From NCBI RefSeq assembly GCF_964194155.1, contig NC_135884.1:142662001-142726000 (forward strand): a stretch of DNA of 64,000 nt, written 5' to 3'. This document shows positions 1 to 61,465 of this stretch, piece by piece. Every line of letters begins with the position of its first letter. The first letter of the stretch is position 1. This stretch comes from Cetorhinus maximus. Lineage: Eukaryota. The notes beneath the pieces are model-generated. The model did not search any database, was not told the DNA's origin, and worked only from the letters and a program-made list of their open reading frames with translations. The position numbers and the translations under genes are program-made.

Positions 1-345
1 GGGGAGGGGAAGTGAAATCTCGATTATTTTTCTGTAAGGAATCCTGTGCAAATTGTAACAATAACAATCAGTAATAATCAGCTTTCACTGGGTTGAGGCT
101 TCCTATGCCGAGGAAAATGAAATGCTCAGGGAGACTATGGAGGTCAAGCGATAGGAGGTGATAATCACAATGTAGAAGTTAATTAACATGTGAAGGAATT
201 AGTCAAACAACAAAAAGTTGTTTCTATTTTTGCTAAGTCACATTCCTGTGCCATAACTTCACAATTAAGTTTGTTGCGAAAATTTCTTCATGAGATTGGT
301 CTTTGAAATAATTCTTTTTTTGCCTTCTTCCCCGATTCATTTTAG

Positions 346-414
346 GTGGAAAGACTGGACGCCAAGGTTATTGGACCACTAAAGGCATATGGTCCGCTGA
401 CAAAATCCAAATGG
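346..414 (+). CDS. CIBAR2: CIBAR2-like exon (69 nt) [23 protein letters not shown]
   Basis: ttttag|GTG acceptor, TGG|gtattt donor; matches the FAM92 VERLEAKV..PLK.YG motif. Confidence 0.92.
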
Positions 415-3400
415 GTATTTTGTTCCTTTGTTCCTATTTAATTTTCCACCGTAATACTTCTAATTAATCAAAAGTCAAATTCTTTTCCACCCACAAACCA
501 AAAATTTCACCTAAACAACAACTTTCATTTATATAGCACCCTCAATGTAGTACAAACATCTTGAGGCACTTCACAGGAGCGTAATCCACTCAGCTTCTGA
601 CCTCATTACAGCCTTGTTTCAAACATGGACAAAAGAGTTGAACTCCTGAGGTGAGGTGAGAGTGACTGCCCTTGACATCAAGGCAGCTTTTGACTGAGTT
701 TGGCATCAAGGAGCCCTAGAAAAACTGGAGTCAATGGGAATCAGGGGGAAAACTCTCCTCTGGTTGGAGTCGTACCCAGCACAAAGAAAGATGGTTGTGG
801 TTGCTGGAGGTCAATCACCTCAGTTCCAGGACATCACTGCAGGAAATCCTCAGGGTAGTGTCCTAGACTCAACCATCTTCAGCTGCTTCATCAATGACCT
901 TCCTTCCATCATAAGGTCAGAAGTGGGGATGTTTGCTGATGATTGCACAATGTTCAGCACCATTCGCGACTTCTTAGATACTGAAGCAGTCCATGTCCAA
1001 ATGCAGCAAGACCTGGACAATATACAGGCTTGGGCTGACAAGTGGCAAGTAGCACTGATGCCACACAAGTGCCAGGCAATGACCATCTCCAACAAGAGAG
1101 AATTTAACCATCGTCCCTTGAAATTCAATGGCATTACCTTCACTGAAACCCCCACTATCAACATCCTGGTAGTTACCATTGAGCAGAAGCTCAACTGAAC
1201 TAGCCATATAAATACTGTGGCTACAAGAGCAAGTCAAAGGCTGGGAATCCTCCAACAAACAACTCACCTCCTGACTCCCCAAAGCCTGTCCACCATCTAC
1301 ATGGCACAAGTCAGGAGTGTGATGGAATACTCCCCACTTGCCTGGATAAGCACAGTTCCAACAACACTCAGAAGATCGAAACCATTTAGGACAAAGCAGC
1401 CTGCTTGATTGGCACCCCTTCCACAAACATTCACTCCGTCCAACACCGACCAACAGTGGCAGCAGTGGGTGCCATCTGCAAGATGCACTGTAGGAACTCA
1501 CCAAGGCTCCTTAGGCAGCATCTTCCAAACCCACACTACAACCTAGAAGGACAAGGGCAGCAGATACATGGGAACAACACCACCTGCAAATTCCCCTCCA
1601 AGTGACTCACCATCCTGACTTGGAAATATATCACCGTTCCTTCACTGTCGCTGGGTCAAAATCCTGGAACTCCCTCCCTAACAGCACTATGGGTGTACCT
1701 ACACCACATGGACTGCAGCGGTTCAAGAAGGCAGCTCACCACCACCTTCTCAAGGGCAATTAGAGATGGGCAATAAATGTTGGCCCAGCCAGTGACGCCC
1801 ACATCCCATGAAAAAATTAAGAAAAACCAGAAAGAATTTGTAACCGAGTTACATAAGGAGATATCAGAACAGGTGAGAGGTAGATTTTAAGGAATGTCTC
1901 AAAGGAGAAAAGAGAGATAGCGAGGCAGAGATGTTTAGGGAAGGAATTCCAGATTTAGGACCCAAGCAGCTGAAGGTGCGGCTGCCAATGATGGAGTAAA
2001 GAAAACTGGGGGATGCAGAGGCTATAATTAGAGGAACACAGAGGCCACAGAGGTTTGTAATGCTGGAGGAGGTTACAGAAGTAGTGACAGGACCGGCTAT
2101 GCAGGGATTTGAAAACAGGAATGAGGAGTGAGAATTTTACTAACCCTTTGGGGACAGGATGGGCTGGGAGGCAGAAAGGCTGGCAAAATGGCAAGGGAAG
2201 ATATTGGGTGGCATGCCCAACATCTGCTTGCTGTCATGCCACTTTGCCAGCACTGGGAAGGATTGCCAATGAGCTAGCTGCCTGGAGCACAATTGAACCA
2301 CTTAAGTATTCATTTCAGGGTTCCTTCCCGTCCCCATGGTCTTTTTGCTATTGGGTGGGGAGACTGCCCAGTGAAACCAGGCAACTTCCTGGCTGGTGCC
2401 GGAAATGGGGCCTCCTTTTTTTGCAGACTCTTTGACCCACAGAAGGGACCCCAATGGCTATGGCCACCCCTGCAGTACCTGTTCACTGAGACACCACCTC
2501 ACCACCCCCCCCCCCCCTCCAATGATTGATGGGACTTGCCTGCCAGGCACCATCTTCCCCAGCTCCACTTACACCTCTTGGAGGGCACCGGCCATTGGTC
2601 CTACATGTACAACACAGCAATGGCCACTTGTGGTAGCGCTGCTCCACCTGCTGCTGAGCTGCTAGCCCTATGATTGGGCTGGCAGCTTTTAGGGGCAGGC
2701 TGCCATCTTTAATAGGGATGTGTCTGCTTGCTGCCAAAATATGACCTGCATACCGCTGCCCACTAAAGCAGGGTCAGACCCCCCCTACCCCATCCCCTGC
2801 TTTGGGCCGCGGCGACAGGAATTTAGTCTTCGATATGAAATTCAGCCCATCGAGTCATTGCTAGACTGGGTGCCAGTGTAGATCAGTGAGCAAAGACGTG
2901 AATGGGACTTGGTGAAAATTAGGATCCTGGCACCAGGATGAGTGCGAGTTTCCAGAGGTTGCAAGATGAGAGGCCAGCCAGAGCAGTATTAGAATATCAC
3001 TGTCAGAGCCTGTTCGTGTTAACCAAAAAGGACTGGTAACTATTACTGTGGAATCCTTTTGACTCCTCCAAGTGCTGATGTAGTCTGACATTGTGGCGAC
3101 ATCTGTGATTCAGATCATTTAGCCTCCTGGCTGTGGGATACACAGTGAGACAGGATAAACACCGGACTTGGGGGATAATGGAAAACAAAGGGAAAAGTAA
3201 ACTGCGAAGACTGGATGTCAATCCTGAAATTCAAAAGCAAATACAGAAGAGCAGGTCAACACCATCTGTAAAGAGAAAAGTGGGCTGATCATTCTTGGAG
3301 ATTATCTTTACTTCAGGACTGGAAGTTGAAAGATAACCCAAAACTCTCTAAGTAAAATTGCTAAACAAACGGGGGCTGGGGTGGGGTGGGGATGAAACTC

Positions 3401-6400
3401 CAGGTAGTGATCGGACTCAATTTCCTCAAATTTACAAGAATGAGAGGCAATTTCATCCAAACATATGTTCTTAAGGGACTTGAAAAGGTAGAAGCTGGAA
3501 GAATTGCTGTGGAGTCCAGAACATGGGGTCACAGGACAGAATCTTGTGGAGCTGACGGGGTCTTGGCTGCCAGCTGGAGACCCGGTGAGAGCCCCATGTC
3601 GCCTCTTTTCGGGAAGGCCCACTGCATGTTGTGCCACTCAGGCAGTTAACAGGCCTGCAGTGGGCCTTCCCCCCTGTGCCAATGACCCTGAGGGCGCAGG
3701 TCCCGCCTGCCAAGAGCTGCCAACCAATCAGAGGCCGGCAGTTCTCAGCTCCACCGCCGGGGAGATGGTGGCCACTGCTGGTACTACACCTACCCAAGGC
3801 TCTAATTGAGGTGAGACCCAGGTGACTGATGGTAAGAGGTTTTACAGGGTGGGGATTGTTTGGGCAGGGGGTTGGCAGCAAGGGCTGGGAGGTGACCTTC
3901 GGGGGCACTCCTCTTCCTGATGTCAGGTCCCTCGATCAGGAACTGAGTGCCTTTGAATGCAGGAGGCCCAACCCCTTCCCCAGGAGCCCACAAATGAACT
4001 CACCAGGGTTTGCTTGTCGCGCTCCTGGCATGGCAAGCTCCGGGCCAACTGCTGGGCTAATACCCTGTAGTTCCCCATTGCTTTCTCCATGGCAATGCCT
4101 CAACCAATCAGAGTCAACTTGCCAACCAATCAGCACTCTTTTCTCCTGTAGTATAAAATATCATGAACGTTTGAAATTTGGCATTCTTACATTTGTCCTG
4201 ACGAGTTCAAGATGAAAAGTTTCAGCAACATGTCTCTCTTTTCAGCCATATCCAAGTTCTGTACTATCAAGCGACTATTAATTTATACAACTGAATTAAA
4301 TTCCTGTCACAATAAAATGTACTTTCTAGAATAGTGGCTTGTCAAAGTTTACACATGTCAGGAAGCAGCATAATTAGTTCTGATTCTCTTTCTGTATTAA
4401 ATCAGACAGACATCAAAAAATTTAACAGCGTCAGAAATCGTGAAATGAAAGAACTGGAAAACCTGCAAAAGTTGAAACAGAAGAACCCTTCGGACAGGCA
4501 AGGGATTGTATCCTTTCTGAAAGGCTGGCCCTTAAGGGTAGAGAGTTTAAAGATAAAATTGACTTCACTTATGCAACTTTTAAAAAAAACAACAGACACT
4601 TATAACTTAGAAAAGGTTGCCTCAACTCTGAGTTAATTCTCCCATCCCAAATGTAATCAGAACTAAATAAGAACAGAAAATGCTGGGAAAACTCAGCAGG
4701 TCTGGAAGCACCTGTGGAGAGAGAAAAACAGAGTTAACGCTTCGAGTCTGTGTGACTTCTTCAGAGCTGAAGAAAGGTAGAAATGTGATGGGTTTTATGC
4801 TGTTTAAGAGGGGGTGGAGCAGGTGGAGCAAAATAGAAGGTCAGGGTAGGTGGGAGTTCAGGAGAGATTTGACAAACTTATCATGGACACAAGTCAAAGG
4901 GAGCAGTAATGATAGTGTTAAAGACTAAGGCGGGTGCTAATAGTGGCATAAAGGTCGGATAGCAGAAGGCGTTAATAGCAGAACAAGGGTCAGTGCTCTG
5001 TGAAAGTAAAGCATGTGAACGAGTTACAGACTGGCCCTGTGTGGGGAGGGCTTTGGGAAAAAAAGGGTGTTGGGGGTGATAGAGGAGTGAACCAGGGTGC
5101 AACAGAGGGTACAGTCCCTGCAGAATGCTGACAGGAGAGATGAGGGGAAGACGTGTTTGGCGGTGGCATCATGCTGGAGTTGGCAGAAATGGCAGAGGAT
5201 GATCCTTTTAATGTGGAGGCTGGTGGGGTGAAAAGTGAGGGCAAGGGGAGCTGTATCATGATTCTGGGAGGGAGGAAAAGGGTGAGGGCAAAGGTGCGGG
5301 AGATGGGTCAGACACGGAGGCAGGGGTGGGGGAGATGGGTCAGACTCGGAGGTAGGGGTGCGGGAGATGGGTCAGACTCGGAGGCAGGGGTGGGGGAGAT
5401 GGGTCAGACACGGAGGCAGGGGTGGGGGAGATGGGTCAGACACGGAGGCAGGGGTGCAGGAGATGGGTCAGTCTCAGAGGCAGGGGTGCAGGAGATGGGT
5501 CAGACATGGAGGCAGGGGTGGGGGAGATGGGTCAGACTCGGAGGCAGGGGTGGGGGAGATGGGTCAGACACGGAGGTAGGGGCGGGGGAGATGGGTCAGA
5601 CATGGAGGTAGGGGTGGGGGAGATGGGTCAGACACGGAGGTAGGGGCGGGGGAGATGGGTCAGACATGGAGGTAGGGGTGGGGGAGATGGGTCAGACACG
5701 GAGGTAGGGGCGGGGGAGATGGGTCAGACATGGAGGTAGGGGTGGGGGAGATGGGTCAGACACGGAGGTAGGGGCGGGGGAGATGGGTCAGACATGGAGG
5801 TAGGGGTGGGGGAGATGGGTCAGACACGGAGGCAGGGGTGCGGGAGATGGGTCAGACACGGAGGTAGGGGCGGGGGAGATGGGTCAGACACAGAGGCAGG
5901 GGTGGGGGAGATGGGTCAGACACGGAGGCAGGGGTGGGGGAGATGGGTCAGTCTCAGAGGCAGGGGTGGGGGAGATGGGTCAGACTCGGAGGTAGGGGTG
6001 GGGGAGATGGGTCAGTCTCAGAGGTAGGGATGGGGGAGATGGGTCAGACTCGGAGGCAGGGGTGAGGGAGATGGGTCAGACTCGGAGGCAGGGGTGGGGG
6101 AGATGGGTCAGACTCGGAGGCAGGGGTGAGGGAGATGGGTCAGACTCGGAGGCAGGGGTGGGGGAGATGGGTCAGACTCGGAGGCAGGGGTGAGGGAGAT
6201 GGGTCAGACTCGGAGGCAGGGGTGGGGGAGATGGGTCGGACACAATTGAACACCCTGTCCTCGGCTCAGGAGAAAGGAAGACATGTCAGATGCACTGTTT
6301 TGGAAGGTAGAATCATTGGAACAGATGCGACGGTGCTTCTCTTCTACTTCTCTATCACCCGCAACACCTCATACCCTTTCCACGGCACCTTCCCAAGCAA

Positions 6401-9400
6401 TCGCAGAAGGTGTAACATCTGCCCCTTTACCTCCTCCCTCCACACCACCCAAGACCCCAGACACTCCTTCCAGGTGAAGCAATGATTCACCTGCACATCC
6501 TTCAATTAGTCTGCTGTATCCGCTGCTCACAATGCGGCCCCCTCTCCATCGGGGAGACTAGGTCGCCACTTTGCAGAACATCCTCGCTCAGTCCATAAGC
6601 ATAACCCCGACCTTCCTGATGCTTGCTATTTCAACTCACCATCTTGCTGTCATGTCCACATTTCTGTCTTGGCCTGCTACAATGTTCCAGTGAAACCCAA
6701 CGCAAAGTGGAGGAACTTCCGATTAGGCGCCCTACAATCGTCCGGACTTTACATTGAGTTCAATGACTTCAGGCCATGAACTCTGACCTCCATTTTGATA
6801 TTTTTTTTCCAAACTCCCTAGCCCCACAGGGCCAGTCTGAAACTTGTTCTCATGTTTATCTTTCACAGAGCTTGTTCTGCTATTAACACATTCTGCTATC
6901 TGACCTTTCTTCCACTATTAGCACCTGCCTCCGTCATTAACACTATCATTACCACTCCCATTGTCTTGTATCCATGACATCTTTGTCAATCTCTCCTGAG
7001 CTCCCGCCTATCCCTGTCCTTCTATTTTGCTCCACCTGCTCCACCCCCTCTTAAACAGTATAAAATCCATCACATTTCTACTTCTCTTTAGCTCTGAAGA
7101 AGAGTCGTATGGACTCGAAATTTTAATTCTGTTTCTCTCTCCACAGATGCTGTCAGACCTGCTGAGTTTTTCCAGCATTTTCTGTTTTTATTTCAGATTT
7201 CCAGCATCCGCAATGTTTTGCTTTTATTTTCGTAATCAGATCCAGTATCATTTAAAATTTTCATATCTCATGAGGTACATTTTTTTATATCTCTTTCTGA
7301 TCACACACTACAAAAGAACAGTGTGTAGATATGGATTACATTGTATACCCAAATAAAGCATTCTATATTGTGCATATGTATGAGAGTTTTGGATATATTG
7401 AGGTGGATTTTATAAAGGGACAGAGCTGCCCTCCCCGACCCAGAAGGCACCTGGCTGACCCGAAACTTGGCTGCCCGCAGTGATATGACGCTGGGGGCGG
7501 CCTTAATTAGTTAAGAGTGGGTGTTCCGCCTCTCTTGCCCTGGAGATGTGCCAACCAATCTGATTGGCCAGCAGCTTTGTAGACCCAGCAGCACCAGAAG
7601 AAAGTAGTGACCACGGCTGGGACTAGAGAGCTGCTGGCCAATCAGATTGAAGTGAAGGTGGATAAGGTTTTGGGCAGGCCTGGCTGTGAGACCCCAGCGA
7701 GGAGGGGGAGGGGACTGGGGGTGGGGTGGTGGTGGGTGGTGTTAGAAAAGCCAAGGAGGGGGGGCATAAATGGGGGGGGGGGGAGTGGTGGCGAGTACGA
7801 ACATCAGGATAGGGTGCCCCAACTGGGCACAAGGGATTCCCCCAAAGGAAGGTACCCCACTTCCCTGCCCGATCGCAGCCTGCACTGTCAAAGCTGCTGT
7901 GCTGTTTGACTTCCGTTCACCTTCCATCGCAGGCTGGAAAATTACGGCAGAGAAGGAATGAGCCCCTTAAATGGCAGTTAATTGTCCACTTACGGGCCTT
8001 AATAGGCCTAAGGGCTGACAGGCTCCCCGTACTATGGGAGATGGGTCGGGGGGTGGGCATGAAGGCGTGGGCTGGCCAACCACCTTAATTATGTGCCCCT
8101 CCCCTGCCCTCCCCCACCCCTGTCTTCAAATACACCAGCAGGGCTGCTGTAAAATTCATGCCATCCTTCAAGGAATGTAAGTGAAATTAGAAATAGTTAC
8201 CTAGTCATTCAGGACATTTTCCTTAACTGATTTTTCCAGTCACTGGTACGTGGCTTTTAAAACTGTATCTGAAGCTCAAGAACTTCCAATCAGCTTGAAA
8301 ACGAATATGTTTTATAGATTGACTGGTGCTGTTTATGATGTAGTTTAGTACGCTTTTAGCCCTAAACGGATTGTTTCAACGAATGTGAACAGGTGGCTGT
8401 ACATAAGAGGTGCAGTAATGATTAAAGACCACATGTTATAATTCCCCTGGTTGACGAGCCAACAAATGAACTGCCCAATGTGATATTGCCCTATGCAGGT
8501 TGGGTATGTCCCAGGTTTGACCCCCGGTCTGTGTTGAGTTGGCTGACTTCAGCTTGGGAAGCTGTAATGATTCTGCAATAGGAGGCAGGAATCCCGCTCG
8601 TCTTATCTGCCCTGTGAACATCTAGCAAGAAAAAAGCGTTTTTTAAAATGGTTGTAGAGTGAAATATGATTCCAAGGTGGAATATCTGCCAATTTTGGCT
8701 CCCTAGTCTCATACGTGAAGGATGTGACCACTGAGGCTGGAGCCCAGGTTTTCAAAGGGCCATGTGGTCGGGAAGGGGTGTGGGTAGGGTTTGAAAATCA
8801 CTGTCCCAGAGACCAAGTTGGAAACCTGATGCCTTTGGAACAGTTCCGAATTTTCAATAGGTCAGCAATGGGAAGGGAGTTGGGAAGGCACCTGCCTCCG
8901 ATTAATGGCTTTTTTAGCTCTTTAAGGAATTGGTTAAGGAGCCTGTCTGGAACGGAATAAAATTTTCAAAACTTCTTCCGGTGATCCCGAACAGTCTCAT
9001 GCATGTCAGTGCACAGCTGACGGGTTTGTCCCAGGGCACAAATACATTCCTTTGGACAAAGTTTTGAGAGGAATCTATGGGGTCAACTAGTGTCAACATG
9101 AGTGCAGGTCCTTACCTTGTCGTGCAAGTGCACTGCCAACCTCGCTCAACCTCCCTGCCTTCTGAAAAGCTGTCTGCTCAAATTGGCAAGACAGCGGCAG
9201 CCTCTAACATGGCTGCCACCAGCCTATGCCACTGGCACCAGACAGGCAGCTCCCACCTCCTGGAGTTGCACAGTGCCTCTAATTGGGTACCAAGCTCACC
9301 TCCTGGCCAATTAGACCATTTAAATTTAAAATATCATCACAAGAACAATGCAGATCAGGTGCAGGGTTGAGACACGAATTCGTCCAGGTGTCAGATTCCA

Positions 9401-12400
9401 GAAAATTCAGTCTAGGAAAGCTACTGACTGATTCAGCACAGTGCCTGACTTGCAATACAATGTTGCTGATTGATAGAAATCAGCTGAAGTCAGGCTACAG
9501 ACGGTGATTATGGGGACGGTACATATTTTATATATATACTTTATTGTACTGCAAATAGTAAGTTTTGTGATAATATGAAACTGGTGCAGGAATATTCCAA
9601 GGACCATTATCAAAAACTCTGATTGAATGACCACATATTAAGCAGCACTACAATTCCCTTGCTAACGGAAATGAGAAAATGTACCCTCTCTCCAGCGCTT
9701 AACATTTGCCAACATGACACACAGCAATTTCTGGAAATGCAACATTGTTATTTTTGTTTTAAGAATAGAAATGCAAAATATTTTTTGGAAGGTGTGAAAC
9801 TTGTAAATGTTGATGTTAAGAGAGACTTGGGTGTGCAAAGAACTCAGAAATGTAGCATGGAGGTACAGCAAGCAATTCTGAAGGCTAATGGCATGTTGGA
9901 CTTTATTGCAAGGGGATTGGAGTGCATGAATAAAGAAGTCTTGCTACCATTGTACAGGGCTTTGGTGAGACCACACCTGGAATACTGTACACAGTTTTGG
10001 TCTCCATATTTAAGGAAGGATATACTTGCATTGGAGGTGGTACAGCGAAGGTTCACTAAATTGGGTCTCTGGGAATGAAATGGCTGCCCTATTGAGAGAG
10101 ACTGAATAAATTGGGCCTATATTCTGTGGAGTTTATAAGAATGAGAGGCAATCTCATTGAATCATACAAGATTCTGAAGGAGCCTTAATAGGATAGACTC
10201 TGAGAGATTGTTCCCACAGGTTGGGGAATCTAAAACATGGGGCCAATCATTAAAGACTGAGATGAGGAGAACTTACTTCATCAAAGGATTGTGAACCTTT
10301 GGAAATCTCTACCCCAGAGGGTTGTGGATGCTCCATCATTGAATATATTTAAGGCTGGGATAGACAGATGTTCTCTCAGGGAATTAAGGGATATGTAGAG
10401 CAGGAGGGAAAATGGAGTTGAAGCCCAAGATCAGCCATGATCGTATTGAATGGTGGAGCAGATTTAGCATGGTCTACTCCTGCTCCTATTTCATGTGTTC
10501 CTGGATTTTTCCTTTAACAAATTGAAAAATCAGCAAATAATATACACATTTTGTGACTAATTGCTGCAGTCTGCTTTGGCAGTAGTAAGTAAATGTCAGA
10601 TGCATCACCTTCATCAATTTTATGCTGCTGCAGTTCATTGTCATTTGTACATGCACACACACTAGCAGATCTCACATGGTGTTGCTCATGGTCAGTAGGA
10701 AGAGTCTGCAGGGGAAGTGTTCCAGGGAATCAGTGCAATAATTAAAGGAATTGTTGCCTACATGCAAGACTTCTAAACTAATACGAAAACAAAGAAAAAG
10801 GAAGAACATATTTGTGTTTATACATCACCTTTGACAAACTCAAGACATCCCAAAGGGCCTTACAGCCAGTGAAGTTTTGAACTATAGTCTTGAACAATAG
10901 CCACTTTTGTAATGTATAAAAAGCTACAGCCAATTTGCACAAAGCAAGGCCACCAACAGCAATATGACAATGAGCAGATCATTTGTTTTTAAGAATGAAT
11001 TTTGGCTGGGACGCTATATATATTAAACTTGGTTCATGGGGTTTGCATTTCTTTGAAGATCTATTTTAAGTGCCTGCAGTATCAGTTATCCCTGTAAGGG
11101 ATGCTCTGATGGGCTTTCTCAATGTTGGAAGTGTTATCCTGGGCAACACACAATAGTTCCTATTTTACAGTGTGAGTATGTCTTCCTGCAATTGCACAAT
11201 TTTGCAATTGGGTTCCTGAAACTGTTTGAAAAACTTTCTTAATGTCCAAAGTAAGGGTTTAAAACAAAATTAAAAACTCAAAATATTGCACAATAACATG
11301 ATTAAATTTCTCCTCCAAATTGACTCAAAAATTCTGCCCATATTCTGTGACTCTGTGACTGGAATTTGGATTCTGCAGTCCAAGCTTGTACAGTGTATCT
11401 GATTACTCGGGTTGCATCAGTACCCTGCAGTTTATCCATTTTCTCACAACTTCCATTCTGGAATCTTCCCTGTATAAGGTGAATCAGTGCTTAGACTAAT
11501 GACAGCTAATGTTGAATTTGGAACAGTTTTGTATTACGATCCCATGTTTATGGGGAACTGGATTAAAAAGGCTTAAGTTGACGTGACATGGAATTATTTT
11601 TAAAAAATTTACCCTGGGGATATGGCCAACACTAACGGCCAGCATTTATTGTTCATCCTTAGTTCCCCTTGAAAAGGTAATGATCTGCCTTCTTGTTGAA
11701 CCACTGCTGTCCATGTGGCAAAGTGCTGTTAAGCAACGAGTTCCAGGATTTGGACCCAGTAATGCCTTAAAGCCATTAAACAAGAGAAAATTTCAACTCA
11801 TTCTTCCCAGCCGAATTCAACCACAGGTCCCAGGTCTAGTGTTTAAAGCACTGCTCCATGCGCCTCTTTTGCCTCATCTCTGATGCCCTTCGCTTGGCTA
11901 TTCGATTGTCACCAAACACAACATGTTACATGCATTGTGATGGGTTTTTTCAGAAGTTACAACATAACTCTGGCATTAGAAGATTAGAACAAGAGTAGGC
12001 CATTCAGCCCTTTGAGTTACATTCAGTTAGATCATGGCTGACCTGAAAGCAGGAGTGTAGGCCTTTGTCCTATCCCTCCATGGTGCATCCTTCTTGAGCA
12101 TGACTTTTGAGCAAGACATAAGTTGTGCTTGTGACCATTAACCAAGAGTTAGTAACATTGCCCTCAGTATCACAATATCTTTACAGTGCAGAAGGAGGCC
12201 ATCCAGCCCATTGCATCTGCACTGACTCTCTGAAAGAGCATTCCACCTAGTTCCACTCCCCTGCCTTACCCCCTTATCAGACTTGATGTTCATTCTGTTT
12301 GAACCTTTCTGTTTGATGCTGTATTTTATTGGAAATAGCTTCAAAGGCTGTACATGATCTAGTTTCTACACAAAACAGACTCAAATAGAGAAGAGACTGT

Positions 12401-15400
12401 ACTCCAGAAACATGGTTACTTTAAAACAATGCAACAAGATTGGATCTTTTGTGGTGCTTTTAAGAAATGCAGTGGCTAGCCTACTTGATCTCAGTGAAAC
12501 CTGTGCTTCTTTTTGCATGTCACCCCTTGGAGTGCAGTGTACCTTTCATACGAAACTGAATCTATACAAGGTTCATTTGTTACCTCCAAATTAACATGTC
12601 TGTCTGAATGTGAGTGTTGACTTCCTTCCTTAGGCTGAAGCCAGTGTGCAGAAGGCTTCAGTTGATGTCAGTCACACCACACATCAGCTGGAGGAGATCA
12701 TTTACAAATTTCAGCAGCAAAAACTGCAGGACATTAAGGTATGAAGATTAGAGTTGATCTCTTTATTCATAAATTAAGTCTCAATTTCCTGCTTTTTTTT
12801 CAGGCCATTCCTTGCTTCACTATTCTTAGGTGCAAAGACTTCTACAGGCTACACCTTGAACTTGGGGAGATAGTAGTGTTGTGGTAATGGGTTAGTAAAT
12901 TCAGAACACTAGGGTTAGTAAATTCAGAGGCCTAGGCTAATCCTCAGGGGGCATCAGTTCAAATCCCCCCACAGTAGCTGGTAGAATTTTTAAAAATCAA
13001 TTAATTAAAAAAAAATCTGGAATTGAAAACGAGTCTTGGTAATGGTTTTGTTAATTGTTCTAAAAACCCATCTGGTTCAATAATGCCCTTTAGGGAAGGA
13101 AGTCTATCGTTCTGGTCTGGCCTACATGTGACTCCAGACCTGCAGCAATGTGGTTGACTCTTAACTGTCCCTCTGAAATGGCCTAGCAAGGCATTCAGTT
13201 CAAGGGATGGGCAACAAATACTGGCCTTGCCAATGACACCCACATCCCATGAAAGAATAAATTAACTCAATCCTTCTGAGGACCTGAAACGGAAAACCTC
13301 AGTCGCCCACTCATTCTAGGATGTTTAAGTCTTTAAAACCTAAAGCTTAGTGGCACCAAAACACCACTTCCTAAATTAACTTCTCTCTTTTCAGTCTCAG
13401 TGCTATCGTGTTTTATTGACCTTGGCTCTGCATGTAGGTTTCTCTGTAAAAGCATTGCAAACTGTTGCAATTCTCAAAGGGAGCCCAATCCAGCATCAGA
13501 ACGGGGGGGGGTCTTGTGATGGTACTGGAGTAAACTGAAGGAGTGATCCATAACTGCACCTGGTCACTGTATCATGATTCCCTTTGCAAAACTCAAATCA
13601 TTTTCTTTCTTTTTATTCATAGGCCATTTTCTCAAACTTTGTGACAGTCGAAATGATATTCCATGCCAAAGCCCTTGAGATGTACACGAATGCCTTCCAA
13701 CACCTGAACAACTTTGATGAAGAGAAGGATCTGGTGGTATGAATGGAAGTAACTTGTGTTTAGTCCTTGTTTAAAAAAAAATTCAGCAGACAGATTTACA
13801 AGAAACCTAGACTGGGATATTTAAAATGTCTTTTCTTAAATAAATAAAACAGCTAGATGAAAGAAAGAAGCTCATAGACAAGGGCCTTGCCAAGGCTGAA
13901 AAGAGTGGGAGACAAAAACAAGACAAGAAGCAGTTAGTAACCCTGCTGTTAGGAATCTACAACAGAACCTGTGGCACAGCTCTTCACCTTGTCTTACATT
14001 CCTCACAGCACAAGGCTTGGTTATGGCGAGCACTTTCTTGCGTGTGTGAATTGATGTCCTACTGCTATGCAATGTTTGTAAAGCTTGAAAACTGGGGGAG
14101 ATGGTGGCGCAGTGGTAATGTCGCTGGACTAGTAATCCAGAGACCCAGTCCATAAATCTGGAATTGAAAGCTAGTCTCAGTCATCTTTTTTTATTCTTTC
14201 ATGGGATGTGGGTTTCGCTGGCTGAGCCAGCATTTATTGCCCATCCCTAATTGCCCCTGAGAAGGTGGTGGTGAGCCGCCTTCTTGAACAACTGCAGTCC
14301 GTGTGGTGTAGGTACACCCATAGTGCTGTTAGGGAGGGAGTTCCATTCTGATCCAGGAACTCCCTCACTAAAAACAGTGATCATGAAACTATCATTGATT
14401 GTCATAAAGACCCATCTGGTTCACTAATGTCCTTCAGGGAAGGAAATATGCCATCCTTACCCGGTCTGGCCCACATGTGACTGCAGATCCCCACAGCAAT
14501 ATGGTTGACTCTTAGCTGCCCTCTGAAATGGCCTAGCAAGCTATTCAGTTCAAGAGCAATTAGGGATGGGCAGCAAATGTTGGCCATGTCAGTGATGCCC
14601 ACATCCCATGAAAGAATAAAGGAAAAACAATCATATTGGAAAGGATTTAACATCTAATCTAGGTGAGCATGCTTCTCATTCAAGGCTTTTCTTTCCCCTG
14701 CTATATGAAGAAAAATAAACTCAGAAGAAGCTGTACATATTTCAAAAAACATTGAACAAACCAGCGTTGGGACGCTTCTGTTATGAATAATGATGAACAA
14801 AAAGATCACCTGGCCTACCCAGTCTGTGCCACCCAATTGTGATACCTTCACAATAAATATACACCACAACAGCCAAAAGACATGTCATCTCCTAGGAGAG
14901 GGGGAAAAAAAACGATAAAACCCAAGGCCAATTGGGGACAAATAATCTAGGAAATTCCTCTCTGACCCACCCCCTCCCCACCACCCCACTAAGCTGATCA
15001 CAGCCAGTCCAAGAGATCTCTGATCCTGAATTCCTTACAGCATCTACCTTTTGTAAGCGGTGATCTGTGCCTCAGCCAGAAATAGGTTCAGTTCTCGCTT
15101 GAAGAAATTTATGGAAACAGAGTCCACTGCACAAGTCGTATTCTCGAGGAAAAGAACCAGCCCCTGACATCCATCCGAAATCTGACATATACAACTTAAA
15201 ATTCTGACCCCTGGTCCTCCTTTTCCTATTTATAACAACAACGTATATCTATATAACACCTTTAACATGGTAAAATGTCCCAAGGCCCTTCGCAGGAGCA
15301 TTATCAAGCAAAATATCACATGGAGCCATGTAAGGAGCTATTGTGCAGAATTGTCCGCGACCACTGGCGTCGGGTGTGCTCAGCAGTGTGAGCAGACAAT

Positions 15401-18400
15401 ATGGCGAGGAGGCCAAAAGCGATTTCATGACTTCGTGGAACCATTTTGCGATCGTCTGCTCAGCCCGTTGACGGTGGGCTGCGTTTCCCGCCATCGGATG
15501 TCGGGACCCTCATTGTAATACATGTGCATATCATTATAAGGCTAGCCCGCCAGACTCATCCCCCCCATGCTAGATCGTCCGCCCACTTCGGCGTGATTGC
15601 ACGCTGATATGGTTCACAACTGCGCATAAGTGACGTGCACCTGGCGGGCTGCACTTCACACTGGACTTCAAGGTTTATTTGCCTACCTTGCTTTGGGCAG
15701 CACTCACAGTCCTCAGTGCCAGGCTTCACAGGCAGCACCACATCACTTTTAGGGGGGCTCACAGGCAGCCATAAGGTGGGGGTGGCTTTGAATGGCTTCA
15801 GGGCTAGGTAGGGGAGAAGTGGCCTCAGGCAAGGGAAGAGTCTGCAGGATGAGGCTTTTACTGAGGAAGAGGGTTATCCCAGGGTGTGTGTGGGGGCACA
15901 AGTTGATCTGTACAAGTGGCCTCAAGATGGTGAGGGCTGAGGAGGCAGCCTCCAGAGGAGATGAGGCCTGATGGAGATGTGAGTGTGTGTGTGAGAGAGT
16001 GAGTGGTGATGCCCCTTGAGCTGGCAGTGAGTGAGATGCCAGTGAATGTGTGATGGGTTTGAGTGTGAGTTTAGAATGATGAGATGGTTGCCTTAACCTG
16101 GCAGCACAGATGAGATCATTCATCCTCTTCCTGCCCTAGATGGCCAACCTCTTCTGTGCAACATTGGCACTGATCACCACTGCCATTGCCTACCAAGCCG
16201 GAGTGGTAATGTTGCTGCCCCTCCAGTGGCCAGAGCGGGGGTAGAGGACATCATGGCGGGCCTCCACGGCGTCCAACAGTCATTCCAGGGATGCGTCACT
16301 AAACCTGGAGGCTGAAGTCTTCTTGCCTTTCGGGGCCATGTCTTACTTGCAGCAGTCCTGGGCTGGAAGCACGTGGGGCTGTACTTTAAATGTGGCGCCC
16401 GACGTGATGAAGTGGTGAGGTGATGGCTTGGCGGGAAAATTGGAGCCCACCCACCATGGAAACGGTGTCTTTCCCAGGAATGCATTATGAATGCATTGGG
16501 TTTGGGATAATATGACATGAGAAGACGCTGTTACAGCCGACATCATTTTACCCGCCTGCTACTGCACTTAGTGCAAATCTGGGATGATTCCGCCCAATAG
16601 GTCAGATGACTAAAAGCTTGGTCAAAGAGGTAGGTTTTCATGAGTGTCTTAAAGGAGAAAAGTTAGGTAGAAGGACAGAGAGGTCTAGGGAGGGCATTCC
16701 AGAGATCAAGGCTTGGGCAACTGAAGGTGTGGCCACCAATGGTGGAACGATTAAAATCGGGGATGCACAAGAGGCCGGAATTAGAGAAATGCAGATATCT
16801 GGCAGGGTGTGGGACAGGAGGAGATTACAGGGATAGGGACGGGTGAGGCCATGCAGGAACTTGAAAACAAAGATGAGAAGAATTTTAAAATCAAGATGTT
16901 GCTTGACCTGGAACCAAAGTAAAATTTGGGAGACTAGCCCAGAATGTATTGGAATAATGCATTTTATCAGCACAAGCTATTTCCTTCATCATCTTATAAA
17001 CCCCGATCAGAATACCCCTACATCCACACTCCTCTAAAGTGTAGAGGCCCAAATGTTTTAGCCTATCTTGATATCCAAGATGCTTTATATTGGGAATTAG
17101 TTTAATGGACCTCCCCTGCACCTTTTCTAAAGTCTTAATATAACCCAATGTGAGGTGTCTAAACTGGACATGATATTCCAAGTGAAGCTTGATCAAGTTT
17201 TTGTACAAGGACAAAATTTTATGCCTAGTCTTATAATAAATTTTTTTATGAGCGTATGCCAACATTCAATTTACTCTATCGCTTCACACCATTGCTCATG
17301 AACCTTTAGAGTTCTATGCACTAGAGCACCCAGATAGCTACCTCCCTTCACCTTCTTTAATGCCTTCCCCTAAATGTCGAACATTCACTATGCCCACGTA
17401 CATAACAATGCACCTGTCCAAATTAAACATACGAACTCCATTTCCCAATACATTAAGATCGAACTGCAAATAGTATCTTCTGCAAATTTATAAATTGCAT
17501 CCCAATACCCAAACCCAGATCATTAATTAAAAACACCCCTCCCTGCAAGGTCACTCTGGTAGCATCTTAAAGATGAGCATGTTCCATGAAGCAGCTCCAT
17601 TGTAAACATAGGAGGACAGGAGTTCAGGCTACTTGAGAGCCACAAAATTCCAGGAATGCACATTCACAGCTGGGAAACCTTCACCCTCATGCTTCCTTAC
17701 TCCTAACATTAACTCCTGCGTGTCTGTTTTCAGCCGTTCCATTCCACTCAACCTTTCTGAAAGTATGGTCAGCACTGTCCTCTAGTTGCCCAAAAGGACA
17801 GACCAAATATGCGGGTTGGGTAAGATTTTTCTTCCCCTCCCCATTTGCAAAGACACTTCAGTCCAGCAGGTGGGAACAAGTAGAAGAACGGCTCACCGTA
17901 GGAACAAACAGAGGCCATTCAGCCCCTCTGAGCCGTTCCACAGTCTTCTACAAAGCCCCTTGTAATTTTCAAATCTTTGTTTAACTTGCTGTATGTGAAA
18001 TTTTTGTTTCCCACAGGCTTTTAGGTCAAAGATCTCCATCAGTGAATTTGAAAATGACGCACGACCATCTCAGTCCCAAAGCAGCTCAAGCTTACAACCT
18101 TCCCCAGGCAGTCAGGTAGTACATCTTTGGAACATTTCAACCTTTACTTCCTAGTTAACCAACTGGCAGTAGAATGAGATTAGGGCAGGCAAGTGTAACG
18201 CAGCACAAAATGGATGAAAATCATATGAACATTCAAAAGTGGCGGGCAAGAAAAGACCCAGCTGGCCCATCAAGCCTGCAGCATGTCACGATAGCAGAAG
18301 CATCAGGACTAAACACTTCTTTCACTCTCTCCCTTCCGCAGCCAGGTGAACTCCTGGGAGAGGCAAGAAGAGAGAGAAAAAGGTCCAGCAGCAATAAGGT

Positions 18401-21218
18401 AAAAATTACTCCGGAAAATCTCTCTCTTGTCCCCTCAGGCAATCAAAATTAACCCAAGAGATCACAAGGACCAAGTGTTAATCATAGAATTGTAGAACTG
18501 AACAGAGCAGAAGGATTTGACCCATTGAGTTTGCACCAGTTCTGTGGGATTTGAACATTCTTTCACAGGATATGGGCGTCACTGGCTAGGCCAGCATTTA
18601 TTGCCCATCTCTAATTGCCCTTGAGAAGGGGGTGGTGAGCCGTCTTCTTGAACCACTTCAGTTCATCTGTTGTAGGTACACCCACACTACTATTGGGAAG
18701 GGAGTTTAAGGATTTTGGCCCAGCAACAGTGAAGGAACAGCCATATAGTTTCAAGTCAGGATAGTGATTGGATTGGAGGGGAACTTGCAAGTGGTGGCGT
18801 TCCCATGCATCTGCTGCCCTTTCCTTCTAGGTGGTAGAGGTCGCAGGTTTGGAAGGTGCTGTCAAAGGAGCCTTGGTGAGTTTTTGCAGTGTATCTTGTA
18901 GATGGTACACACTGCTGCCGCTATGCGTCAGTGGTGGAGGGAGTGAATGTTTGTGGATGGGGTGCCGATCAAGCAGGCTGCTTTGTCTTGGATGGTGTCA
19001 AGCTTCTTGAGTGGAGCTGCACTCATCCAGGCAAGTGGGGAATATTCTATCACATTCCTGACTTGTGCCTTGTTAGGTGGTGGACAGGCTTTTGGGATCA
19101 GGGCGTGAGTTACTCTCCATGGAATTCCCAGCCTGCTCTTGGAGCCACAGCATTTATATGGCTAGTCCAGTTCAGTTTCTGGTCAATAGTAACGCCCAGG
19201 ATGTTGATAGTGGGGGATTCAGTGATGGTAATGCCATTGAATGTCATGGGGAGATGGTTAGATTCTCTTTTGTTGGATATGGTCATTGCCTGGCACTTGT
19301 GTGGAGTGAATGTTACTTGTGTTCAATGTGCTCAACCTTCTGACTAAAGAACTCGTTCACAATTTTCCCAAACCTATAGTTTCATGACAAAAACCTTCCC
19401 CAGAGGAGCTGCAATTACCTTTAAGAGTCAGATGCATCAAAAGCGGTCAAATGTTAAAGCTCAAATGAGTGATTCCCCCACTCTCAGAGACAGAGGGCTC
19501 TCAAATCTGCCTTTCCTTTGAATAAACATAGACCCAATTCTGTCAGCATTTTCCACACAAATTCTCAGCATTTGTTTTTCATATAATTTGTTTCAGATGA
19601 ACAGAATTTCGAGATTCAAAGATTAAGGGCAGGTGGTGGTGAGGTGGTATTGTCATTGGACTGATAATCCAGAGACTCAGGATAATGCTCTGGGGGCCCG
19701 GGTTTGAATCTCACCATGACAGATGGTGGAATTTGAATTCAATAAAAATCTGGAATTAAAAGACTAATGATGACCATGAAACCATTGTCGATTGTGGTAA
19801 AAACCCATCTGGTTCACTAATGCCCTTTAGGGAAGGAAACCTGCTGTCCTTACCTGGTCTGGCCTACATGTGGTTGACTTTTAAATGCCCTCTGAATAAG
19901 GGCAATTAGGGATGGGCAGTAAATGCCGGCTTAGCCAGCGATGCCCCACATCCCTTAAATGAATAAAGGGGAAAAAAAACAGATAGAATAGCTTAGATAA
20001 TGGCTCAGATTATGAGATAGTAAAGAGATGGCAAAACTGTCAGCATTTGCCATAATTACTCCTCTGAATCTGAAAGCAACTCCTGGAGTTAGCACATGTA
20101 CATGGAAATTCAGAAGTTGTTGTCAGTGAATCAATGTTTCCTCAGAAGGTGTACTGTTCAATCCCCCCCCCCCCACCAAACTGCAATCAAATAGAAATCA
20201 CTGAACTGACGAGAACTTGTCAAAATGTTAGTGTCACTGTAAAGATCCTTGAAGAAGGTACACCTTGGTGAATTAGGTGTAATTGAATTTTTAATGCTAC
20301 ATTAAGTTCACAGTTACTACTGAACAACCTCGCCAACTGTGGAAAACTTATTTTATATTTTTGGGGTTTTAAGTTTTTCTCCGATGATAAAAAATTCACA
20401 TTTTAAAATTTAAAAAATGTGTTTTTATAATATTTGAGTTTTTAACCTTAATCCCATGGTGTGTCCAAATCAGTTATTTTGGCCTTTCTAAAATGTTACA
20501 TTAAAAGTGAAAAATTCAGTGCATTTCACTTCCTGTTTTGCTGTCTATGAGAATACTTCAATATGATTGGCTGCTTGATGACATCACTGTTGTTGGATGC
20601 CTGGCAATTACCTTGGTTCCAGGTTCAAGCTGGCATCAAAAAAGGGGAAATCCTTGCCTTGGAGATTGCTATGTCTTTGTGGGGTGCCATCACTTCGCCA
20701 CTGATTGTGAAATCTGACCAATATAGAAACAAATCAGCATAATTTACAAGCACATTTAGTGGCACCTTCCCATACACTGATCTCTCTGCATGTGATTCCA
20801 ATACTTCAGTTACAAGGAATCAGTTGGGCACCTACCAAATTCTTTGCCTCTTGAGTGGGTATCAGAGTAAAGCGTGCATATAGAATTCAAATCATTTATT
20901 TTTAAATGTTTAAAATAACACGCCATACCATTTTAAATGAAGACATTCATGTTTTGAATGTCAATGCTTGCATAAATGTAATTTTAAGGCAATTGTGCTT
21001 AAACCACAAAACTAATGTGCAGTTTTTCATGGGGCTAATCTCTGTGATTTACTTCCATAATCAAACCCCTAATGTCATTGCAGCTCCGGACTCCAAGAGC
21101 TCTTCGTGCTCATTTTCAGGAAGAAGAGTCAGAGGATGAGGAGGAAGAAGAAGAAGTTGAAGAGTTGCAGGATCTCAGTGATGATGATTACAATCAATAT
21201 GCGAAAATTAGAAAATGA
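346..21218 (+). CDS. CIBAR2: CIBAR2/FAM92B-like BAR-domain ciliary protein, 3' part; join(346-414,4406-4507,8240-8245,12634-12738,13623-13736,18017-18115,21084-21218), 5' exons outside the window
   Basis: Seven AG/GT-bounded phase-0 exons total 630 nt and read openly to TGA: [16 protein letters not shown]...[47 protein letters not shown]...[31 protein letters not shown]... This is a FAM92 family sequence. [17 protein letters not shown] and FRSK are closer to recalled FAM92B than FAM92A. Confidence 0.88.
590..1825 (+). mobile_element. 5'-truncated CR1/L2-group LINE, RT C-terminus plus 3' UTR (family A)
   Basis: ORF 734-1198 has G.PQGSVL and MFADD RT motifs; internal stops; tail ...aagggcaattagagatgggcaataaat...cacatcccatg followed by an A-rich end. 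Confidence 0.9.
1840..2125 (-). mobile_element. L2-type LINE 3' fragment
   Basis: Similar to 16596-16915, 52562-52760 and the reverse complement of 60375-60650 (tttagggarggaattccaga...cagctgaagg...ccaatgrtggag). Confidence 0.6.
4087..4279 (+). mobile_element. Penelope-like pseudo-LTR fragment with CCAAT/CCAAT/TATA and a degenerate hammerhead motif
   Basis: CCAAT at 4104 and 4126, TATAAAA at 4152, TGTC-CTGACGA-G...GAAA at 4194-4217; homologous to 35810-35968. Confidence 0.6.
4406..4507 (+). CDS. CIBAR2: CIBAR2-like exon (102 nt) [34 protein letters not shown]
   Basis: atcag|ACA acceptor; ends at ATT|GTATCCTTT (U12-type donor); NPSDR motif of FAM92. Confidence 0.92.
4508..4516 (+). promoter_or_regulatory. 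U12-type (minor spliceosome) 5' splice site GTATCCTTT
   Basis: Perfect match to the RTATCCTTT consensus exactly where FAM92 similarity ends. Confidence 0.88.
4662..7231. mobile_element. Degraded Penelope-like retroelement with inverted terminal arms and a GIY-YIG remnant
   Basis: Arms 4662-5064 and 6801-7195 are reverse complements; GTAATCAGA is duplicated at 4653-4661 and 7232-7240; 6360-6780 reads [16 protein letters not shown]...[20 protein letters not shown]...IGET, typical of the PLE Zn-linker/GIY-YIG region. Confidence 0.85.
5284..6242 (+). repeat. 32-bp G-rich minisatellite, about 30 copies (AGATGGGTCAGACWCGGAGGYAGGGGTGGGGG)
   Basis: AGATG recurs at 5301, 5333, 5365 ... 6229. Confidence 0.97.
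8217..8239 (+). promoter_or_regulatory. U12-type branch point TTTTCCTTAAC and 3' splice site
   Basis: TTCCTTAAC at 8219-8227 followed 10 nt later by AG (8238-8239), the typical U12 spacing. Confidence 0.85.
8240..8245 (+). CDS. CIBAR2: 6-nt microexon TCACTG (Ser-Leu) of the CIBAR2-like gene
   Basis: ccag|TCACTG|gtacgt; supplies the two residues FAM92 proteins have between ...PSDxxxI and AE...; preserves frame. Confidence 0.8.
9770..10500 (+). mobile_element. CR1 LINE 3' fragment (family B)
   Basis: [42 protein letters not shown], then frameshifts and the CR1 3' UTR (agatcagccatgatcgtattgaatgg...ctcctgctcctatt). Confidence 0.9.
12634..12738 (+). CDS. CIBAR2: CIBAR2-like exon (105 nt) [35 protein letters not shown]
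   Basis: cttccttccttag|GCT acceptor, AAG|gtatga donor; FAM92 similarity. Confidence 0.93.
12864..13262 (+). mobile_element. tRNA-derived SINE with a family-A LINE tail
   Basis: Degenerate A/B boxes (agttcaaatcc), body ctggaattgaaa...cccatctggttc, tail gggatgggcaacaaatactggcc...cacatcccatgaaagaataa. Confidence 0.8.
13623..13736 (+). CDS. CIBAR2: CIBAR2-like exon (114 nt) [38 protein letters not shown]
   Basis: Long pyrimidine tract, catag|GCC acceptor, GTG|gtatga donor; conserved EM.FH.KA.E.Y motif. Confidence 0.94.
14094..14625 (+). mobile_element. tRNA-derived SINE interrupted by an antisense family-A LINE tail (about 14184-14365)
   Basis: A box TGGCGCAGTGG at 14105; body and tail as in 19627-19979. 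Confidence 0.75.
14775..17515 (-). mobile_element. CR1 LINE (RT C-terminus and long 3' UTR) split by nested L2 and Harbinger insertions
   Basis: ORF 16891-17265 reads [19 protein letters not shown]...LEKVQGR...[12 protein letters not shown]; the 3' UTR at 14775-15230 resembles 18230-18480 and the reverse complement of 32220-32460. Confidence 0.7.
15343..16595 (-). mobile_element. PIF/Harbinger-derived non-autonomous DNA transposon with a decayed Myb/SANT-like ORF (16339-16097)
   Basis: [33 protein letters not shown]...[12 protein letters not shown]...KRMNDL has the trihelix Myb/SANT pattern; imperfect TIRs gtgcagaattgtcc / ggatgattccgccc. Confidence 0.72.
18017..18115 (+). CDS. CIBAR2: CIBAR2-like exon (99 nt) [33 protein letters not shown]
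   Basis: tttttgtttcccacag|GCT acceptor, CAG|gtagta donor; FR.K start and Ser/Pro-rich linker as in FAM92. Confidence 0.82.
18555..19325 (-). mobile_element. Family-A LINE 3' fragment
   Basis: Reverse complement of about 1060-1815. Confidence 0.88.
19627..19979 (+). mobile_element. Near full-length tRNA-derived SINE with a family-A LINE tail
   Basis: A-box-like TGGTGAGGTGG, B-box-like GGTTTGAATCT at 19701, tail aagggcaattagggatgggcagtaaatgccggc...cacatccc, A-rich end. Confidence 0.85.
21084..21218 (+). CDS. CIBAR2: CIBAR2-like last coding exon [44 protein letters not shown] (alternative in-frame start at 21120)
   Basis: ttgcag|CTC or ttttcag|GAA acceptors, both phase 0; acidic tail typical of FAM92 C-termini; TGA at 21216-21218. 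Confidence 0.75.
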   Translation, partial: LRTPRALRAHFQEEESEDEEEEEEVEELQDLSDDDYNQYAKIRK

Positions 21219-22334: not shown

Positions 22335-23180
22335 CCCTTAGTTTATTTTAACCACCTTCTCAACCTGCCCTGCAACCTTTGATGATTTGTGCACATATAC
22401 CCCAGGTCTTTTTGCTTCTGTACCCATTTTAGAATTGTATCCTTTATTTTCTATTGCCTTGCTTTGTTCTTCCAAGCAAAATGTGTCCCCTCACACCTCT
22501 CTGCATTAAATTTCATCTGTCATTTTACCCATTCCACCAACTTATGTCCTCTTGCAGTCTCTCGCTATCCTCCTCACCGTTCACAGTTCCAAGTTTTGCA
22601 TCATCTGCAAAATTTTGAAATTGTGCCCTGCACACCCAAGTCTAGATCATTAATATAGATCAGGAAAAGCAGTGGTCCTAATACCGACCCCTGGGGAACC
22701 CCACTGTGTACTTTTTTCCAGTCTGAAAAACAACTGTTCACTACCACTCTCTGTTTCCTGTCATCCAGCCAACATCATATGCATGCTGCCACTCTTCCTT
22801 TTATTGCATAAGCTTCAACTTAATTTCTGACAAGTCTATTATGTGATACTTTATCAAACACCTTTTGGGAGTCCAAGTACACCACATTCACTGAATTACC
22901 CTCTTCAACCATCTCTGTTACCTCATCAATAGCTCAGTCAAGTTAGTTAAACATGACTTGGCTATAACTAATCTATGCTAGCTTTCCATAAGTAATGCAC
23001 ACTTGTCTAAGTGACTTTAATTTTGTCCCAAATTACCACCCCTAAAAGCATTCCCACTACCAATGTCAAACTGACTGGCACGTAGTTCCTGGGTTTATCC
23101 TTACACCCTTTCTTTGAACAAAGGTGTAACATTTGCAACCCTTCAGCCCCTCTGACACCAGCCCTATTATCTAAGGAAAA
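22335..23180 (-). mobile_element. CR1 LINE RT fragment
   Basis: Minus strand reads KKG.KDKPRNY.PVSLTLVVG.LL, DSQKVFDKVSH and [22 protein letters not shown] motifs with frameshifts. Confidence 0.85.

Positions 23181-29597: not shown

Positions 29598-61465
<31,868 letters not shown>

Follow-up and report, generated by a model that had tools for sequence, protein, structure and literature searches.

The CIBAR2 locus and its minor intron

The window considered here, a stretch of 64,000 nucleotides (nt) from the shark Cetorhinus maximus (NC_135884.1, positions 142,662,001 to 142,726,000 of the forward strand), carries a gene that, as judged from its coding sequence, is the shark CIBAR2 (FAM92B) gene. 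Its exons match the Pfam family FAM92 (PF06730), the closest named proteins are CIBAR2-like records from sharks, and P0004 agrees in tblastn with the exons of the window wherever coding sequence was aligned. In a tree of 26 rows, where the nearest named protein served as proxy, the gene groups with CIBAR2 with a support of 100/100, and a close relative, P0124, shows a fold match to the FAM92A structures 9uhd and 8ceg. The features described below lie on the plus strand. Coding exon A (346..414; 69 nt, phase 0) ends at a U2-type donor. Coding exon B (4406..4507; 102 nt, phase 0) encodes the part of the BAR domain that runs from the distal half of helix 2 over the tip loop into the start of helix 3, and its last bases are ATT. 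This ATT precedes a U12-type 5' splice site, GTATCCTTT (4508..4516), which opens a U12-type GT-AG intron of 3732 nt (4508..8239) in which dispersed repeats and, at about 5300-6240, a tandem array rich in G are found. Close to its 3' end the intron has a U12 branch-point sequence, TTCCTTAAC (8219..8227), with 9/9 agreement to the consensus and a predicted branch A at 8226, and the first AG 3' of it is that at 8238-8239. There follow a 6-nt microexon, TCACTG (8240..8245), which encodes Ser-Leu, the counterpart of residues 145-146 of human CIBAR1 within the first turns of BAR helix 3, and a U2-type donor, GTACGT (8246..8251), that agrees with the usual U2 consensus at 7/9 positions. The six bases have usable splice sites on both sides and keep the frame. 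Coding exon D (12634..12738; 105 nt, phase 0) has a U2-type acceptor, its best match to the U12 branch consensus being 6/9. Upon retention of the U12-type intron, the first in-frame stop would be reached at 4634..4636, after 42 intron-coded residues beyond exon B. A preliminary description of the window had placed the donor at 4508, the branch site at 8219-8227, the AG, TCACTG, GTACGT, the exon at 12634 and the stop at 4634-4636 at precisely these positions. It was also right in giving exon D an ordinary U2 acceptor. Exon D is not the only exon downstream, however: a 15-nt microexon at 10570-10584 was overlooked.

The assignment of the intron to the minor class, already proposed in that description, gains strength from several features. 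The U12 5' splice-site pattern RTATCCTT, complementary to U11, is present at 4508, and this donor forms with the U11 5' end of this genome a duplex of 7 base pairs and -6.2 kcal/mol, as compared with +0.4 to -1.9 kcal/mol for four U2 donors of CIBAR2 against the same U11. Similarly, the branch site at 8219 pairs with the U12 of this genome at -12.7 kcal/mol, and four other CIBAR2 acceptors at -3.7 to -8.4 kcal/mol with 6/9 matches to the U12 branch consensus. U12 branch sites follow the consensus TTCCTTRAY at about 10-20 nt from the 3' end of the intron, and the predicted branch A stands 13 nt from that end. The same consensus agrees with the minor-intron rows catalogued in the supplement of PMC6717393. 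As a U2 donor, the site at 4508 reaches only 4/9 of the usual consensus and has no AG at positions -2/-1, since the exon ends in ATT; validated U12 GT-AG introns without AG at these exon positions are described in PMC10853781, which ties AG there to U2 use. Within 4508-12633 the only perfect U12 branch site is that at 8219, 13 nt 5' of the microexon, and acceptors later than the microexon carry U2-type sites. Genes for U11, U12 and U6atac were found in this genome above the Rfam cut-off. At this cut-off the genome holds at least 41 U11, 14 U6atac and 8 U12 copies, counting genes or pseudogenes. The position of the intron also agrees with that of a catalogued minor intron, as indicated by the DNA of the CIBAR1 paralogue and, indirectly for other species, by the human and mouse donor context and by the read-through residues V-S-F/L described below. 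On the strength of these sequence features, the intron at 4508-8239 is of the GT-AG U12 type and is the shark orthologue of the already catalogued CIBAR2 minor intron.

The six-nucleotide exon, its conservation and the remainder of the locus

The use of the microexon was followed in 299 vertebrate protein records, 150 of a CIBAR2 set and 149 of a CIBAR1 set, a biased sample made of best hits and cluster members. Two residues are present at the junction in 192/299 of them (108/150 and 84/149, respectively). The rest of the CIBAR2 set is composed of 27 records without just the two residues, 4 that also lack exon B, 1 with donor read-through, 7 with longer inserts and 3 unparsed; in the CIBAR1 set 25/149 lack just the two residues and 9/149 are double-skip isoforms, devoid of both exon B and the microexon. 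Ser-Leu itself is found in 14 records, sharks without exception. The two residues are missing from both named isoforms of the nearest shark CIBAR2, the white-shark record has them, and in 17/17 hand-picked same-species pairs one record carries the residues and the other does not. This bears out the earlier remark that annotation pipelines lose such exons, and it suggests that many database proteins two residues short are artefacts of a 6-nt exon. Mis-predicted records read V-S-F/L past the Ile and S-Q-V past the two residues, which would place an intron on either side of the microexon in other vertebrates as well, and the solved chains of human and mouse CIBAR1 align at this site without a gap. 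The 6-nt exon is likely included in nearly all full-length mRNAs.

The layout reappears in the CIBAR1 paralogue of the same genome (G000:C4:126040393-126050090), where a U12 donor at the same codon (126040393) opens a U12 intron of 9692 nt that ends with a 9/9 branch site at 126050066, an AG, a 6-nt exon encoding Thr-Gln (126050085-90) and a GT donor. These two residues also occur in P0133 and P0260, which are CIBAR1 proteins of sharks. The sharing of the layout by the paralogue implies that it predates the CIBAR1/CIBAR2 duplication. No supported second microexon was detected in the 824-nt downstream intron of the paralogue, where one 12-nt candidate lacks support. An earlier origin was considered in invertebrates from ten protein records, chosen for oddness at this site among 150 representatives. 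Amphioxus and an annelid show V-S-F read-through at the site, octopus isoforms differ there (VSSK versus AQ), and models of oyster, mussel, limpet, nemertean, sea spider, millipede and spider are two residues short. Such annotation artefacts suggest a module of bilaterian age, older than vertebrates. Among bony fish and amphibians, the CIBAR1 records P0188 (zebrafish), P0158 (grass carp) and P0202 (tailed frog) read VCF, VGL or VQN past the Ile, instead of V-S-F/L, and SQ is kept in carp records. The cyprinid intron may have become U2-type with the microexon kept, or another terminal exon may be used.

The second microexon of the shark gene (10570..10584; 15 nt, with a U2-type branch motif and a GTAAGT donor) encodes Ser-Ala-Leu-Ala-Val. 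It emerged as one of two candidates when open segments of 3-30 nt, in multiples of three and framed by YAG and GTRAG, were sought in 8246-12633. Its product SALAV is homologous to SALVE in two skates (P0015, P0016) and to SALAE in a bamboo-shark isoform (P0017), a protein match expected by chance about 7e-4 times per intron. The other candidate, also of 15 nt (11157-11171), was set aside because it had no protein support among the tallied inserts. The second microexon is present in 3/150 records of the CIBAR2 set and absent from the nearest named shark models; with so low a presence it is likely alternative. P0017, the sole isoform that skips exon B yet keeps the second microexon, is also without SL. 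UGC 5' of a microexon is the rule for SRRM3/4 and YCAY that for Nova. UGC occurs at 10562 and 10565, just 5' of the U2 acceptor, in keeping with the neural SRRM3/4 rule, and five YCAY lie within 100 nt 3' of the exon, a number reached by 4% of 1946 intron windows. Both motifs give a weak hint of neural regulation of the second microexon. At 8240-8245, where the acceptor is U12-type, no UGC was found within 80 nt 5' of the exon, the nearest TGC being at 8159. The frog CIBAR2 records P0063, P0074 and P0091 carry eight additional residues behind those of the microexon (SSTGAYDK, SSSEAQNK), which may stem from a second microexon at the corresponding site in frogs.

Downstream of exon D, the gene continues with a 114-nt coding exon in which the BAR domain ends (13623..13736), a 99-nt coding exon (18017..18115), a 57-nt in-frame exon encoding a basic stretch (18342..18398), which is included in some shark isoforms and absent from others, and the last coding exon with the stop codon (21084..21218). 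Beyond 21500, no Pfam match was obtained for 9/14 long open reading frames of the window, and no neighbouring gene for a comparison of synteny came out of them. Each U12 motif occurs alone once more in the window, GTATCCTT at 22437 and TTCCTTAAC at 47907. The GTATCCTT/GTATCCTTT copy at 22437 was rejected as a splice site and put down to chance, as it belongs to a dispersed repeat that recurs both in the window and on contig C4. At 47907-47919 a perfect branch motif with CCAG close behind stands in non-repeat sequence, and neither an exon nor an upstream U12 donor could be attached to it. A GC-rich, strand-skewed region with long stop-free frames extends over about 51300-52900, and the G-rich array of the U12-type intron has, by eye, a unit of about 29 nt.

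Splicing model, expected failure product and alternative explanations

It is quite probable, in our judgement, that the 6-nt exon served by the U12 donor at 4508 and the U12 branch site at 8219 is included in nearly all full-length mRNAs, and that failure of minor splicing drops the microexon and exon B together. U11/U12 recognizes donor and branch site across the intron. Binding of this kind would dispense with definition across 6 nt and with a tissue-specific activator. Since the microexon acceptor is the only one with a U12 branch site, the U12 donor likely must use it, and in this respect the hand-over from U12- to U2-type splicing envisaged in the preliminary description is probably correct. 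The simultaneous action of two spliceosomes 6 nt apart, also envisaged there, would not be needed: both introns could be removed in turn, and after the loss of either one the microexon would sit within an exon of 108 or 111 nt. Pairing of class-matched sites would yield the full-length product, a double skip from the donor of exon A (414) to 12634 or to the second microexon, and joining of cryptic U2 donors near 4508 to 12634. The other annotated forms fit this scheme: exon A is joined to D in P0018, P0024 and P0025 and to the second microexon in P0017, and D is reached from a donor within exon B in P0021 and from one within the U12-type intron in P0003. Loss of U11 or U12 leads to the double skip in mouse and human CIBAR1, and by analogy would do so in shark CIBAR2. 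The supplement of PMC8034651 gives for Fam92a a double-skip index of 0.84-1.0 in five U11-null mouse brain samples, with control values of 0, 0, 0.17 and 1 and one blank, and it also lists the event under human U12 inhibition; validation in U11-null mouse limb by reverse transcription PCR is reported in bioRxiv 2022.11.10.516037.

Exon B and the microexon add up to 108 nt, from phase 0 to phase 0, and encode 36 residues equivalent to human residues 111-146. The stretch runs from the distal half of helix 2 through the R132/R134/R136 cluster and the tip loop into the first part of helix 3, and PMC11266426 identifies this arginine cluster as lipid-binding. The double skip is predicted to produce a three-helix BAR with a shortened arm that would lose one lipid-binding cluster. 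In a model of the full-length white-shark protein (mean predicted local distance difference test, pLDDT, of 83), SL opens the helix 139-208 and the fold matches the FAM92A structures; in the model of the annotated whale-shark double-skip form (mean pLDDT 77) the three long helices are preserved and a new loop is formed at 105-109.

Several observations weigh against, or limit, the explanation preferred here. Only these two residues are missing in 52/299 records (27/150 plus 25/149), the RefSeq models P0004, P0123, P0135, P0256, P0140, P0261 and P0262 of several sharks and rays being among these. Table S7 of PMC6717393 reports downstream-exon skipping of Fam92a at 46-100% in normal mouse tissues and at 88% in human testis, figures that at face value refute the term obligatory used in the preliminary description. 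In the paralogue, the branch-site duplex (-7.1) is the same as that of its next acceptor. The size of the human and mouse exon, 6 nt, is itself deduced from donor context and the gap-free protein alignment. The under-counting of a 6-nt exon could equally inflate the double-skip index, and the alignment behind the short-arm model consists mostly of full-length homologues. Contigs of four runs, guessed to be RNA, placed on 1-19000 were mostly repeats with no exon junction, and are uninformative either way. Part of these data would be expected if the microexon were an optional cassette, the 4508 donor being often used by the major spliceosome and joined to 12634 to give a protein two residues shorter, and PMC10853781 indeed describes some U12-consensus sites usable by both spliceosomes. 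We nevertheless consider this explanation unlikely. The junction 4507-12634 is seen in 0/16 Logan run-assembly records, where 15/16 carry the residues and 1 shows the double skip, in a sample that is small, has no identifiable cartilaginous fish and whose 90% clustering may mask two-residue variants. Likewise, the residues are present in another record of the same species in each of the 17 hand-picked pairs, and the 4508 donor is, as stated above, a poor U2 site. Because Table S7 gives values near 50% to several mutually different event classes within one and the same set of samples, as mis-mapping would produce, and because run assemblies show no single-skip junction, we infer that the published skipping reflects mis-mapping of a 6-nt exon. 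The hand-over is likely, and obligatory inclusion, with the above observations against it, is likewise probable.

A coincidence of motifs around six bases that are no exon has to be weighed as well. The genome-wide pattern of branch site, AG, 6 nt and GTRAGT gave 19 matches against 45 in the control, without enrichment, and each motif has its second copy in the window. Single motifs being not rare and the pattern unenriched, the case for the feature rests on position and conservation. In 1500 first-order Markov simulations of 4508-12633 the succession of branch site, AG, 6 nt and GT had a frequency of 0.0067 per region, and the probability of GTATCCTT behind a given GT is about 2.4e-4. Moreover, TCACTG translates to exactly the two residues of 14 shark proteins, the CIBAR1 paralogue repeats the layout and the orthologous intron is catalogued, so that chance has next to no probability. 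The remaining alternative, advanced in the preliminary description, treats the tight spacing of U12 and U2 sites as a rate-limiting valve whose failure retains the intron and produces a BAR protein truncated at 4634. The stop at 4634-4636 is real, and some records end soon after donor read-through (e.g. P0218, P0188). According to the supplement of PMC6800510, the human CIBAR1 intron is retained more in U4atac patients, at 3.2% in their fibroblasts and 12% in their lymphoblastoid cells, and PMC12750831 reports a decrease of 69.9% in the canonical CIBAR1 transcript of SCNM1 patient fibroblasts. Yet retention in the controls of PMC6800510 is 0.9%, and the outcome of U11 loss is the in-frame double skip. 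Furthermore, in PMC8034651 exon lengths gave no distinction between sensitive and insensitive minor introns, and nuclear retention or decay is typical of retained minor introns in PMC11874965, although truncated proteins are also named there. A transcript retaining the 4508 intron, with its stop at 4634, would be expected to remain in the nucleus or to undergo decay. These data make the valve very unlikely and do not sustain a rate-limiting point that gives a truncated protein; regulation by enforced inclusion, with an in-frame double skip as the failure product, is the likely arrangement.

The preliminary description is upheld in assigning the microexon to the BAR domain and in linking minor splicing with cilia. 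CIBAR1 is a target in the SCNM1 ciliopathy. A wider interpretation, conceivable and on balance doubtful, would see in the U12 intron and the 6-nt exon a pre-vertebrate module, constitutive by splice-site class alone and acting as a structural switch. Low minor splicing would then produce short-armed, dimerising CIBAR1/2 without the distal lipid cluster, a possible dominant inhibitor at the ciliary base that might contribute to minor-spliceosome ciliopathies, and the 15-nt exon, possibly neural, would tune the same helix in cartilaginous fish. The core of the observation is already known, both paralogues being catalogued minor-intron genes in human and mouse, and for that reason the observation by itself changes little. 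Beside this core, the 15-nt microexon and the protein-level hints of a pre-vertebrate layout were not found in the literature searched. In addition, the expected failure product shifts from a truncated protein to an in-frame deletion of 36 residues, and high FAM92A downstream-exon skipping and many two-residue-short database proteins are suggested to be artefacts of the 6-nt exon. As a natural minigene, the locus could also serve to find out if a U12 intron allows the regulator-free inclusion of an exon too small for exon definition.

Relation to known minor introns and microexons

The supplements of PMC6717393 and PMC6800510 include FAM92A and FAM92B of both human and mouse among the genes with minor introns, the donors being ATT|GTATCCTTT and ATC|GTATCCTTC. 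The introns of FAM92B/CIBAR2 in human (173 nt) and of Fam92b in mouse (142 nt) share with the shark intron the gene clade, a U12 donor that follows an Ile codon, and the branch site TCCTTAAC. The shark intron differs from them in its length of 3732 nt, the mammalian values being those of Olthof et al. 2019 (PMC6717393) and Table S3 of PMC6800510. The minor introns of human and mouse FAM92A/CIBAR1 (3000 and 2451 nt) occupy the same position as the shark one by donor context, and the catalogue rows for both mammals in these two sources make no mention of the size of the downstream exon. Regarding the exon itself, shark CIBAR2 has Ser-Leu where most bony vertebrates have Ser-Gln, and cartilaginous fish add the 15-nt microexon. 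Both SCNM1 orofaciodigital syndrome and the U11-null state in mice affect the CIBAR1 minor intron, and the functional data at hand all concern mammalian CIBAR1. In the open-licence literature no account was found of the coupling of a U12 intron with a 6-nt exon, of the second microexon or of a short-armed CIBAR isoform, and the available parts of PMC4667643, PMC12269497 and bioRxiv 2026.08.20.745718 contain nothing on this exon.

Two kinds of systems resemble the arrangement in CIBAR2. Constitutive microexons with strong splice sites (PMC7821500) and neural SRRM3/4 microexons are, like the present one, very short, in frame and often mis-annotated. In contrast to them, the first CIBAR2 microexon has a U12 acceptor, the discovery tool of PMC7821500 is described for U2-type flanks, and Fam92 was not found in the supplements of that study. 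Circuits of crosstalk between U12- and U2-type splicing have been described for prospero, SRSF10, NCBP2, MAPK8/9, TMEM87A/B and CENATAC (PMC8329584), in which, as here, U12 and U2 sites lie close together and loss of minor splicing diverts the major spliceosome. The best in-frame U2-like donors beside 4508 reach only 5/9, short of a twintron, and cryptic donors vary by species (P0003, P0021, P0257). Unlike those twintrons and interlocked introns, the CIBAR2 introns are placed in series around a 6-nt exon, and are neither nested nor mutually exclusive.

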